Source of the DNA: Nitrososphaerota archaeon
GTDB lineage: Archaea > Thermoproteota > Nitrososphaeria_A > Caldarchaeales > Calditenuaceae
Reading direction: 5' to 3'
Assembly (NCBI GenBank): GCA_041641295.1
Contig: JBEPYO010000001.1
Location: 288,001-352,000, forward strand
DNA: 64,000 nucleotides
The notes beneath the pieces were generated by a model. That model was not told the origin of the DNA. It was given only the letters and a program-made list of their open reading frames with translations, and did no database searches. This document shows positions 17,517 through 59,420 of the stretch, one piece after another. The position numbers and the translations under genes were made by a program. Position 1 is the first letter of the stretch. Every line of letters starts with the position of its first letter.

Positions 17517-18329
17517 CTACAATCGCGCATCGATATATCTTGATAGGGCCGGCGGCCTCTCCTTGGCCGCTTCTCTAGAGTATTCCACTACCTCGGCCAG
17601 CTTTTGGGGGTCCTGCTCAGCCAATGTGCCGGTTACAATGATGTCGGCTCCAGCCCGTATGGCCTCTGCGGCCGCCTTGCCAGACCTGATGCCTCCGCCC
17701 ACGATTAAGGGAATATCCACCGTCTTCCTAACAACGCGGATGAGTTCTGGGGGTATTGGGGACTCTGCCCCCGACCCAGCCTCCAGATAGATTAGCCGCA
17801 TGCCCAGCATTTGGGCAGCCAGGGCATAGCTCGCAACTATGTTGGGCTTATTCTCGGGGAGTGGGAATGCCCTACCCACTGCTGCAACACTCGTCTCGCC
17901 CTTAATCACTACGTATCCGACAGGTATCGGCTCAAGGTTGTATTCCTTGACCATGAAGGAGCCGTGAATCTGGGCCCCCAGTATAAACCACCACTCCAGA
18001 GAGTTGAGCAGAGACATGTAGAAGACCGCGTCGGCGTAGGGGCTTAGAGATGTGATGTTGCTCGGGAAAATTATAACCGGCAGGTCGGAGACAGACTTTA
18101 TGGCTTTAATTGCCTCATCCATCATCTCCTTGAAATATACGGTTGAGCCTCCCACCATGAACCCATCCGTGCCCATCTCCTCAGACCTCTCCGCGAGCTT
18201 CGCCAAGTTCTTAGTATCCAATACCTCGGGATCGAAGAGTGTCAGATGTACGAACCCCTTCTGCCTGAGCCTATTTACCAGATAGTTCTCTGTCTTTCCA
18301 ATCTTGAATCCTGTCTCGCCGCGGCTCAT
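17517..18329 (-). CDS. geranylgeranylglyceryl phosphate synthase
   Basis: LFDPE, MVGGST, YLEAGSGA, VGGGIRS, IVTGT. Confidence 0.93.
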   Translation of the reverse strand: MSRGETGFKIGKTENYLVNRLRQKGFVHLTLFDPEVLDTKNLAKLAERSEEMGTDGFMVGGSTVYFKEMMDEAIKAIKSVSDLPVIIFPSNITSLSPYADAVFYMSLLNSLEWWFILGAQIHGSFMVKEYNLEPIPVGYVVIKGETSVAAVGRAFPLPENKPNIVASYALAAQMLGMRLIYLEAGSGAESPIPPELIRVVRKTVDIPLIVGGGIRSGKAAAEAIRAGADIIVTGTLAEQDPQKLAEVVEYSREAAKERPPALSRYIDARL

Positions 18330-18712
18330 GTCTCCCTGTTTTCCTCGCTACTCTCGCTAGAGTCTGGGGCTTCGAGTTGACTACCCTCCTCCGAGGCCTC
18401 AACTGGCTCGCCAGACTCTGCTTGAGAAGCCTCAACCACTACGGCCTCAAGCCTCTCAATCTTCTCTCTAACCTTCTCAGGACTAACCCGGCCCGTTACA
18501 ATGTCGTACCATGTAGAGTAAGCGTCGACGGGCAGATAGCTCTTCAGCCATGGGACCTCGTGGCTAACACCGCATTTGCCGCAGGAGACAACGGCCCTGA
18601 ACCTCATGACCTGTGTTACAGTGACGGCCTGAGCGCCGCATAGGGGGCAGACGAAAACTTTCGGCGGTGCTCGAGCAGTTCTACGTATTATCTTCCTCCT
18701 CTTCCTCCCCAA
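18326..18712 (-). CDS. elf1: transcription elongation factor Elf1
   Basis: MGRKRRK...FVCPLCG...CGKCG...PVDAYSTWYD; acidic C-tail; TTTAAA about 20-25 nt upstream. Confidence 0.88.
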   Translation of the reverse strand: MGRKRRKIIRRTARAPPKVFVCPLCGAQAVTVTQVMRFRAVVSCGKCGVSHEVPWLKSYLPVDAYSTWYDIVTGRVSPEKVREKIERLEAVVVEASQAESGEPVEASEEGSQLEAPDSSESSEENRET

Positions 18713-18791
18713 CCCTAGTTACACCTAGGTTTAAAGGGGATAGGCGCTGCTAATTACCTTTCCCACACCACCAATTTTGCCGGATATCATG

Positions 18792-18884
18792 TGCGGCCGC
18801 CGGGATTTGAACCCGGGACTTGCGGGCGTGCCCGCCAGAGTTGGCTCGGGGCCCCGCCGTCATACCTGGCTAGACCACGGCCGC
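18792..18884 (-). tRNA. tRNA-Gly(CCC)-like with 19-nt BHB intron (18828-18846) at 37/38; atypical loop G32/C33/G38
   Basis: Acceptor GCGGCCG/CGGCCGC plus A73, D arm GTCT..TGAC, anticodon stem GCGGG/CCCGC, T arm CCGGG-TTCAAAT-CCCGG; BHB GCCC/GGGC with CGA and ACG bulges; no encoded CCA. Confidence 0.85.
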
Positions 18885-18920: not shown

Positions 18921-19544
18921 TCAGATATTCTCAGAGGTTGCTTTGAAATAAATCTTGAGCGCTGATTCCTCGTCTGGGCTTAGGCCCTTAAACTCTGGCC
19001 CTGTCCCGTCGTCGGGCAGGACTTGGATGGTGGCTGTGGGGTATTGTTTTTTGAGCCTTGCTACGAGTTCGTGGGTCAGTGCCTCGGGCCTATATCCGAT
19101 GTAGAAGGCGAGGCGCCTATTCTCTCCGAGGCATTTAACAGTCATCCTGCAGTCTTCCTCGAAGGCCTCAATGCTTGGGTAGGTGTGGGTCTTCACCACG
19201 TAGCCGTCCACCACGTAGGCGACTCCCAGCCTGCGGCCCGGGTCTATTGCGATATCGAGGGAGGTTGGCGGCCTGTTTGGCCCAAGGTTTGAGGCCGCTT
19301 GGAGGGCTATACACTCGGGGGAGGGGTAGTCTTCCAGGTAAAGCGTTTTCAGACGACTGGGAAGGGACAGCCCCTCCTCCCTGCTGGCCACAGCCACCTT
19401 CACGGTGAGCGGAATCTCTTCGAGAGCCGTCACCCAAAGAGCCTGGATGCCGATACGCCGACAGGCCTCCAACACTTTTAACGCCTTCGCGTTATCTCTC
19501 AAGAGAACGGCGACAACACCCTTAATCCCGCCCCTCAACCCCAC
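18921..19544 (-). CDS. hypothetical protein with YqgF/RuvX-like RNase H fold C-terminal domain
   Basis: IAIDPGRRLGVA...FYIG...VLPDDGT...DEESALKI resembles YqgF acidic motifs. Confidence 0.6.
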   Translation of the reverse strand: MGLRGGIKGVVAVLLRDNAKALKVLEACRRIGIQALWVTALEEIPLTVKVAVASREEGLSLPSRLKTLYLEDYPSPECIALQAASNLGPNRPPTSLDIAIDPGRRLGVAYVVDGYVVKTHTYPSIEAFEEDCRMTVKCLGENRRLAFYIGYRPEALTHELVARLKKQYPTATIQVLPDDGTGPEFKGLSPDEESALKIYFKATSENI

Positions 19545-58849: not shown

Positions 58850-58923
58850 GCCCCGGTAGCTCAGCCCGGTAGAGCGGCCGCCTCGTAAGCGGCAGGTCGC
58901 GGGTTCAAACCCCGCCCGGGGCT
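58850..58923 (+). tRNA. tRNA-Thr(CGT), intronless
   Basis: GCCCCGG/CCGGGGC acceptor, U73, anticodon stem GCCGC/GCGGC with loop CT-CGT-AA, TTCAAAC T-loop. Confidence 0.95.
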
Positions 58924-59243: not shown

Positions 59244-59372
59244 TAGCCCGGGCCGGATTCGAACCGGCGTCACGGGGTCACTTCTCCCCCGTTTTGCGGG
59301 ATCCAAAGCCCCGCATCCTTGGCCCCACTCTATTCTGGCCAGGGAGTGGTTTGACCGCTAGACGACCGGGCT
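59244..59372 (-). tRNA. tRNA-Gln(TTG) with two BHB introns (59319-59350 at 21/22; 59279-59302 at 37/38)
   Basis: AGCCCGG/CCGGGCT acceptor (A1-U72, typical of archaeal Gln), CGGGG/CCCCG stem, loop CT-TTG-GA after splicing, 73 nt mature; TTAAATA upstream. Confidence 0.92.
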
Positions 59373-59420
59373 GTCCGGGCTAGGGATGTGGCGGGTGATA
59401 TTTAACTGGTTTTCGCTATT

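Follow-up and report, generated by a model that had tools for sequence, protein, structure and literature searches.

A tRNA-Gly(CCC) gene with a G32-C33 anticodon loop recurs across Caldarchaeales genomes

Position 32 of the tRNA anticodon loop is expected to be a pyrimidine and position 33 a uridine, and both features are regarded as near-universal; nonetheless, the tRNA-Gly(CCC) gene of a Caldarchaeales ('Aigarchaeota') archaeon, located in the 64,000-nucleotide stretch of DNA analysed here (the window), encodes a loop that reads G32-C33-CCC-G37-G38. This tRNA is probably an ordinary one, the sole decoder of GGG codons in its host, equipped with a loop specific to its lineage. The sequences compared here indicate that the loop is a derived, inherited and conserved trait of that lineage, and not a separate system. 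Canonical archaeal tRNA-Gly(CCC), with the loop C32-U33-CCC-R37-A38, was represented by two loci of the order (L110 and L111) and by 56 of the 94 matched genomes elsewhere in the phylum. It has the same acceptor stem, D arm, T arm, A73, anticodon and length, whereas the gene described here has G32, C33 and G38 instead of C, U and A, and a G-C instead of a C-G pair at 31-39.

The gene, 93 nt long and without an encoded CCA, lies on the minus strand at 18792..18884 of the window, corresponding to G000:C1:306792-306884 of the host genome (1.56 Mb, 52.5% G+C, completeness 93.8%), as placed by Rfam RF00005, ARAGORN and the sequence itself. Its 5' exon (18847..18884, minus strand) spans tRNA positions 1-37 and is made of the acceptor strand GCGGCCG followed by U8 and G9, a D arm with the stem GUCU/UGAC, a U13-U22 mismatch and G18G19 in its loop, G26, the anticodon-stem strand GCGGG, and the loop bases G32 (18852), C33 (18851), the anticodon CCC at positions 34-36 (18848..18850, minus strand) and G37 (18847), an assignment on which the sequence, the CM alignment and the fold agree. 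A 19-nt intron occupies the canonical 37/38 site (18828..18846, minus strand). The 3' exon (18792..18827, minus strand; sequence and CM alignment) then begins with G38 and continues with the stem strand CCCGC, which completes the anticodon stem GCGGG/CCCGC, the variable loop AAGUC, the T arm CCGGG-UUCAAAU-CCCGG, the acceptor strand CGGCCGC and A73. The initial annotation had described four well-formed arms, and so they are in the sequence and in the Rfam alignment, with the U13-U22 mismatch of the D stem as an addition. The glycine identity set of the archaeal and eukaryal type, i.e., A73, C2-G71, G3-C70, C35 and C36, is entirely present, and G1-C72 is found as well. As a member of RF00005 the RNA forms a cloverleaf scoring above the gathering threshold; its anticodon loop is 7 nt long, has CCC at 34-36 and sits on a 5-bp stem. 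It departs from the Y32 and U33 of elongator tRNAs, having G32 and C33 instead.

Tools for tRNA detection handled the gene in different ways. A targeted Rfam search of a 281-base stretch matched RF00005 at 49.4 bits (cut-off 29 bits, E 6.4e-10, model positions 1-71), with 26 bases separating the two anticodon-stem strands in the unspliced gene; an Rfam run over the whole window at gathering thresholds listed only the tRNA-Thr at 58850 and not this gene. ARAGORN reported a gene at 18791-18884, labelled tRNA-??? with the anticodon cccg or, in intron mode, Gly(gcc) with a 4-nt intron. Both labels are misreadings; the splice register of the bulge-helix-bulge (BHB) motif gives CCC. Given these mislabels and the miss in a standard Rfam pass, automated annotation of such genomes may report tRNA-Gly(CCC) as missing.

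The minimum free energy (MFE) fold of the unspliced RNA (-50.2 kcal/mol) is composed of the anticodon stem GCGGG/CCCGC, a 4-bp helix GCCC/GGGC, two 3-nt bulges (CGA and ACG) and the intron hairpin GCCA-ACUC-UGGC. The intron GGGC pairs with G32-C35, and the last two intron bases, AC, sit in the 3' bulge. These are the features of an archaeal BHB intron, that is two 3-nt bulges, a 4-bp helix between them, flanking helices and symmetric splice sites, all of which were recovered by both fold and parse. Cuts placed two bases into each bulge remove 19 nt and leave the mature loop G32-C33-C34-C35-C36-G37-G38; the fold and the enumeration of excisions thus confirm what the initial annotation gave as BHB anatomy, as splice register and as mature loop (G-C-CCC-G-G). 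The fold energy by itself is weak evidence, since the RNA is rich in G+C and its z-score against shuffled sequences is only -1.87, with 9 of 200 shuffles equally stable. The eight 19-nt excisions possible between the stem halves all leave G at position 32, together with C (6/8) or G (2/8) at position 33. An alternative splice register producing a normal loop was also considered with excisions allowed to reach into the stems, and rejected, as Y32-U33 appeared in none of 18; a canonical loop, which had been indicated as one outcome that would overturn the first reading, is found in neither the 8 nor the 18 registers.

The host genome encodes two tRNA_int_endo (PF01974) paralogues, at 111.2 and 55 bits, and one RtcB (PF01139, 550 bits). 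The endonuclease pair lies at G000:C1:1407460-1407705 and 83425-83673. The pre-tRNA would be transcribed with its 19-nt intron, whose pairing with positions 32-35 would form a strict BHB; to judge from this motif and from the encoded enzymes, the splicing endonuclease would then cut both bulges and RtcB would join the exons. Strict hBHBh' introns at the 37/38 site of archaea have the same two 3-nt bulges, 4-bp central helix and flanking helices, along with an encoded endonuclease and RtcB. Compared with the usual archaeal 37/38 introns the present one is unremarkable, except for the covariation of its 3' strand with G32 and C33, and the splicing mechanism is by all appearances ordinary. For Caldiarchaeum subterraneum, the main text of the genome description lists 46 tRNAs, BHB introns in 13 of these 46, and a heterotetrameric endonuclease (Nunoura et al., 2011, PMC3082918).

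A combination of ARAGORN, Rfam and hand parsing of intron-bearing genes resolved one gene per anticodon for 46 anticodons, while the genome-wide Rfam run gave 46 tRNA matches at E up to 1, 44 of which were above the cut-off. No second tRNA with a CCC anticodon was found among the 46 placed tRNA genes (assembly completeness 93.8%), which answers in the negative the question initially raised of whether another, canonical Gly(CCC) exists in the genome. In the tRNA-Gly(GCC) gene (G000:C1:191618-191710, minus strand) an intron of 19 nt interrupts the anticodon stem, and the mature loop is CUGCCAC; tRNA-Gly(UCC) (G000:C1:1425463-1425537) has the loop UUUCCGA. Hand reading placed the intron of tRNA-Gly(GCC) at 29/30, and ARAGORN labels this gene Ser(aga) or tRNA-???. 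Among the 35 tRNAs parsed by ARAGORN, 33 have Y32-U33, the exceptions being tRNA-Gly(CCC) and the mis-parsed Gly(GCC), the latter C32-U33 when parsed by hand; the remaining intron-bearing tRNA genes are C32-U33 by eye, and the same is true of the other two tRNAs of the window, as had been stated from the outset. The first 15 and the last 23 bases of tRNA-Gly(CCC) are identical to those of Gly(UCC), where the last 23 lie at G000:C1:1425515-1425537, and the T arm is the same in the two tRNAs. In 1,079 long ORFs, GGG accounts for 8,480 of the 33,123 glycine codons (25.6%), or 20.6 per 1000 codons, being the 15th most used codon. In the host genome alone, the ratios for G following the codon were 1.00 for AGG, 1.07 for CGG and 0.93 for TGG vs. 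0.78 for GGG. One dimeric GlyRS, encoded at G000:C1:1347023-1348480, and two proteins with a TRM5-TYW2 methyltransferase domain are present in the genome.

The G32-C33 loop extends well beyond this genome. The gene was compared by BLAST with 41 genomes (the host and 40 relatives, from four families and 11 genera), all of which gave a match, and 29 of the 30 loci listed were tRNA-Gly genes with the same loop start. The thirtieth, L027, is a Gly(UCC) gene. A species-wide scan covered 185,579 prokaryote species, each represented by a single genome, and used a pattern formed by the 5' half of tRNA-Gly, six free positions and GCCCCG; it returned 36 records, and every one of them (36/36) was a full tRNA-Gly gene with GCCCCG, an intron or none, a G and the matching stem strand. 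The labels of 22 records were Caldarchaeum, Calditenuis, Pelearchaeum, Terraquivivens, Calditenuaceae, Caldarchaeales or Aigarchaeota, and 13 were generic archaeal ones. NCBI taxonomy places Calditenuaceae within Candidatus Caldarchaeales and Terraquivivens within Wolframiiraptoraceae, so that the host genome falls within this group. The tRNA genes of its relatives from the same genus match exactly those in records labelled Calditenuaceae and Caldarchaeales. One record of the 36 is a 2.6-kb contig labelled Bathyarchaeota (L046). The gene on this contig has the same sequence as the genes of one genus of Caldarchaeales, and tRNA gene transfer or a mis-binned contig are both possible.

When positions 32 and 33 were left free, the pattern matched 62 of the 76 Caldarchaeales genomes surveyed, and the 14 non-matches do not equal absence. 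The matched genomes fall into three loop states: G32-C33 in 39 of the 62 (in families f1 and f4, in the f3 genus g6 and in a single g15 genome), C32-C33 in 18 (genera g9, g13, g14 and g15 of f3) and C32-U33 in five (three of f2 and two of g9). One of the 14 unmatched genomes, G011, has a G32-C33 gene in which an extra insert after position 26 broke the pattern, and which shows a fourth stem variant, CCGGG/CCCGG. In this gene (L182, G011:C10:18700-18920, minus strand) the insert, roughly 19 nt long, comes in addition to an intron of 21 nt at 37/38. In the full sequences, the G32 type is further distinguished by G38, where the other two forms of the order have A38, and by G-C in place of C-G at 31-39.

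Outside the order, the same pattern was applied to 401 genomes sampled across the phylum, and matched 94 of the 341 non-order genomes, the other 247 being unclassified. The matched strings read C32-U33 in 56 genomes and C32-C33 in 38 (11 family codes), and G32 occurred in the tRNA-Gly(CCC) of none of these 94 matched genomes of the phylum. Thirteen of the outside C32-C33 cases were fetched; 12 parsed to the 7-nt loops CCCCCAA, CCCCCGA, CCCCCGC or CCCCCAC, and the thirteenth (L113), which gave no automatic parse, shows CCCCCGC in the printed sequence. One locus outside the order (L103, in G089) has an apparent second intron in the T arm. Across the genomes matched, C33 in tRNA-Gly(CCC) thus appears widespread in the phylum, and the combination of G32 and G38 is what marks Caldarchaeales. 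The initial annotation had proposed looking at the locus in related genomes: G32 and C33, with a matching intron, do recur in relatives, but not as the only form, C32-C33 and C32-U33 genes being present in the order too.

Many of the 29 loci have no intron (e.g., L012-L016, L021-L026, L030), and these intronless orthologues encode GCCCCGG uninterrupted between the same stem halves, and one of them, L013, fits the standard cloverleaf with an Rfam score of 55.2 bits. The contigs from three DNA runs are identical over the stretch, although they are possibly the source of the assembly and so not independent, and a fourth DNA run covers just 40 bases, outside the gene. Among the sequencing runs searched, no RNA run containing the locus was found. 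Error is therefore rejected mainly by comparison, as the intronless orthologues carry GCCCCGG directly, and the earlier statement that a single sequencing error does not explain the loop is borne out by relatives that encode the same loop with no intron.

The loop GCCCCGG does not vary among the 20 distinct mature G32-type sequences (20/20), and neither do the acceptor stem and A73, while other stem pairs change by compensatory substitution. Pair 27-43 is G-C in 11, U-A in 7 and C-G in 2 of these sequences, pair 28-42 is C-G in 11, G-C in 8 and G-U in 1, and pair 49-65 is C-G in 17 and G-C in 3. The introns of the 20 distinct intron-bearing genes of this type range from 12 to 26 nt, have little common sequence and are all inserted at 37/38. 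The base that faces C33 is G in all 20 introns and the one that faces G32 is C in 11 and U in 9; the helix of the pre-tRNA has thus co-evolved with the encoded G32 and C33. All four pairs of the central helix are intact in 19 of the 20 genes; the claim that the intron matches G32, first made for the present gene along with the view that splicing appears to be maintained, is confirmed and extends to genes beyond it. In the intron-bearing C32-C33 genes L107 and L108 the base opposite position 33 is A, and the same A pairs with U33 in the C32-U33 gene L111. The introns of L107 and L108 keep GGAG, resulting in an A-C mismatch in the central BHB helix, which points either to tolerance of the mismatch or to a recent change to C33.

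The neighbours of tRNA-Gly(CCC) are housekeeping genes, encoding PolD DP2, a member of the GGGP synthase family, an Elf1-like protein, IMPDH and adenylosuccinate synthetase, and no mobile genes were present among the neighbours examined. When five neighbouring proteins were searched by tblastn against 36 loci, neighbour proteins turned up beside the tRNA at each of the seven remaining loci from its genus, and in a rearranged order in one sister genus; none of the five was found at the loci of other families, nor beside C32-C33 or C32-U33 genes of this set. Synteny is limited to the genus and, in part, to one sister genus, and orthology across families rests on the status of the gene as the sole CCC glycine tRNA of each genome.

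The history of the loop was followed on a tree of the PolD large subunit (DP2), a single gene, obtained by quick maximum-likelihood with a fast search on 61 genomes (G013 left out). On this tree the three loop states require 4 changes, with 3 changes for G32 vs. C32 and 2 for C33 vs. U33. Forcing the G32 genomes together made the tree 47.4 log-likelihood units worse (p-AU 0.0015), for a constrained group that excluded G069 and was defined after the tree was seen. The 3 changes and the rejected constraint are at odds with simple vertical descent of G32, whose history may involve reversal, repeated origin or transfer of the small tRNA gene. Transfer of the tRNA gene is hinted at by G069 (L050/L112, G069:C15), which has a G32-C33 gene in a genus with C32-C33 in 8 other genomes, and by the similarity of 12-nt introns between genera of two different families; for G069, tRNA gene transfer and a mis-binned contig are both possible. 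In the same tree genus g6 of f3 stands apart from the other f3 genera, and the remaining f3 genomes have f1 as their sister group (SH-aLRT 99). The odd placement of g6 may be a gene-tree effect.

As an ordinary GGG decoder, the mature tRNA would be charged by the single dimeric GlyRS and would read GGG, m1G37 formed by a Trm5-family enzyme would block a C33-G37 pair, and strong CCC-GGG pairing, or overlap with Gly(UCC), may relax the need for U33. Modification to m1G37 is common in archaeal tRNAs having G37, according to the main text of a survey of archaeal tRNAs (Wolff et al., 2020, PMC7668247). When the unmodified 17-nt arm was folded at 37°C with nearest-neighbour energies, the form with the C33-G37 pair came to -9.3 kcal/mol vs. 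-8.6 kcal/mol for the open loop, and in relatives with the stem CGGGG or UGGGG the preferred structure at that temperature was a slipped helix whose loop has 4 nt; at 75°C the open form was the optimum for the GCGGG stem. With a closed form predicted at 37°C, the unmodified loop may decode poorly. In addition, tRNA-Gly(UCC) could read GGG by wobble, and tRNA-Gly(CCC) may for this reason be non-essential.

An arm predicted to close on itself at 37°C when unmodified, and a loop without Y32 and without U33, are also what a specialised or side-lined tRNA might display, with Gly(UCC) reading most GGG codons and the present RNA acting as a glycine donor, as a regulator, or as a poor decoder that tunes GGG. 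The Rfam scores of intronless relatives drop in the same sense, from 71.1 bits (C32-U33) to 61.0 and 57.8 bits (C32-C33) and 55.2 bits (G32-C33). We nevertheless consider such a role unlikely, because GGG is a common codon, the anticodon is invariant, the T arm and the acceptor ends are those of Gly(UCC), and nothing points to escape from the elongation factor or to a different synthetase. The extra tRNA-Gly genes of staphylococci serve cell-wall synthesis, and a cell-wall tRNA-Gly is an extra copy beside a canonical isoacceptor, in which an altered T arm or D loop weakens binding to the elongation factor; in contrast, no canonical CCC copy stands beside the tRNA-Gly(CCC) described here. The non-ribosomal glycine donor listed among the original options is therefore unlikely, the gene being the only CCC one and having G18G19 and a standard T arm, the same as in Gly(UCC). 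The wider proposal of a specialised tRNA, and of an undescribed system, is not supported either: this is the sole CCC gene, next to normal Gly(GCC) and Gly(UCC), and its loop is the usual form across most of the order.

Correction of the loop after transcription, whether by deamination of C33 to U or by modification of G32 or C33 so as to restore a canonical-like turn, would make the working tRNA more conventional than its gene, but appears improbable. The intron A that faces C33 in L107 and L108, in the place where A pairs with U33 in L111, would regain its partner through a C-to-U change, and C-to-U editing of archaeal tRNA occurs at position 8 in Methanopyrus. We know of no tRNA editing at position 33, however, and the 20 intron-bearing G32-C33 genes, all with G opposite position 33 and C or U opposite position 32, argue against correction. 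Still harder to sustain is a quadruplet or +1 frameshifting tRNA, with C33-C36 reading GGGG. The loop has four consecutive C, a run including the CCC anticodon that is shared with the sufD-type +1 frameshift suppressor tRNA-Gly, and G follows GGG at a frequency of 0.286 vs. 0.365 overall, a ratio of 0.78 that is the lowest among the NNG codons listed. Yet the loop of the sufD-type suppressor has 8 nt owing to an inserted base, whereas here it has 7 nt in every register and in the intronless orthologues, 2,418 in-frame GGG-G sites remain in the 1,079 long ORFs, a similar depletion of G follows many NNC codons (0.70-0.83), and the C32-C33 type, with five C in a row, is widespread. The 7-nt loop and the GGG-G sites are equally at odds with the altered decoding that had been put forward at first. 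Lastly, a pseudogene, or an assembly or sequencing artefact, as might be suspected for a loop that breaks near-universal rules in a gene that two tRNA finders mis-call or miss, is refuted as far as sequence comparison reaches by the presence of this loop in 36 public records and in 39 of the 62 genomes matched within the order, by compensatory stem changes and a maintained intron helix, and by the lack of any other gene able to supply the CCC anticodon.

Retaining the ordinary sole GGG decoder as the preferred reading, a broader interpretation is possible, although we hold it with less than even confidence: the whole order might translate the common codon GGG with an elongator lacking Y32 and U33, in which the turn is not based on U33 and may depend on G37 methylation and a G32-G38 contact as the sole means of keeping the loop open. 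Were this true, the loop would represent a natural, selectable exception to the U-turn rule, and C33 in the tRNA-Gly(CCC) of many thermophilic Thermoproteota would be the first step of the same relaxation. With the loop of tRNA-Gly(CCC), the extent to which the U-turn rule is necessary could be tested on an example from nature, and the graded series existing within one order (C32-U33, C32-C33, and G32-C33 with G38) is suited to comparative experiments.

Loops without U33 have precedents. Cytoplasmic initiator tRNAs of some eukaryotes carry C33 and also work without U33, but they are initiators entering the P site, not elongators, and do not have G32. In the phylum considered here, non-U33 elongator tRNAs are a known curiosity: the tRNA-Cys(GCA) of Sulfolobales has an 'unusual' C33, and those tRNAs could not be isolated, as reported in the main text of Wolff et al. 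(2020, PMC7668247), where no like remark on tRNA-Gly(CCC) was found. The Sulfolobales tRNA-Cys(GCA) is similarly an elongator without U33, but it is a different tRNA, from a different lineage, and has no G32. The main texts of two papers dealing with Caldiarchaeum tRNAs (PMC3082918, PMC3293823) make no mention of the glycine loop. Watanabe et al. (2015, PMC4307357) detected, as cDNA, the complete set of glycine tRNAs in Aeropyrum pernix and Sulfolobus tokodaii. A literature search of main texts did not find G32 or C33 in tRNA-Gly(CCC) described, and an earlier remark, especially on C33, is possible; the G32-C33 variant of the tRNA-Gly(CCC) anticodon loop is apparently undescribed.

Other features of the region and of the tRNA set were observed. 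Directly downstream of the tRNA, the product of the gene at 18326-18712 (minus strand) is 128 aa long and contains an Elf1-like zinc ribbon (PF05129, E 1.7e-12), and directly upstream, 18921-19544 (minus strand) is a 207-aa ORF with no Pfam match at E 1e-5 that is conserved beside the tRNA within the genus. The tRNA-Gln(UUG) of the window (59244-59381, minus strand; G000:C1:347244-347381) holds several introns and has the loop CUUUGGA; Rfam scores it at just 19.5 bits (E 0.14) and ARAGORN labels it Ser(gga). The tRNA-Gln(CUG) gene, at G000:C1:248198-248321, is similarly multi-intron.
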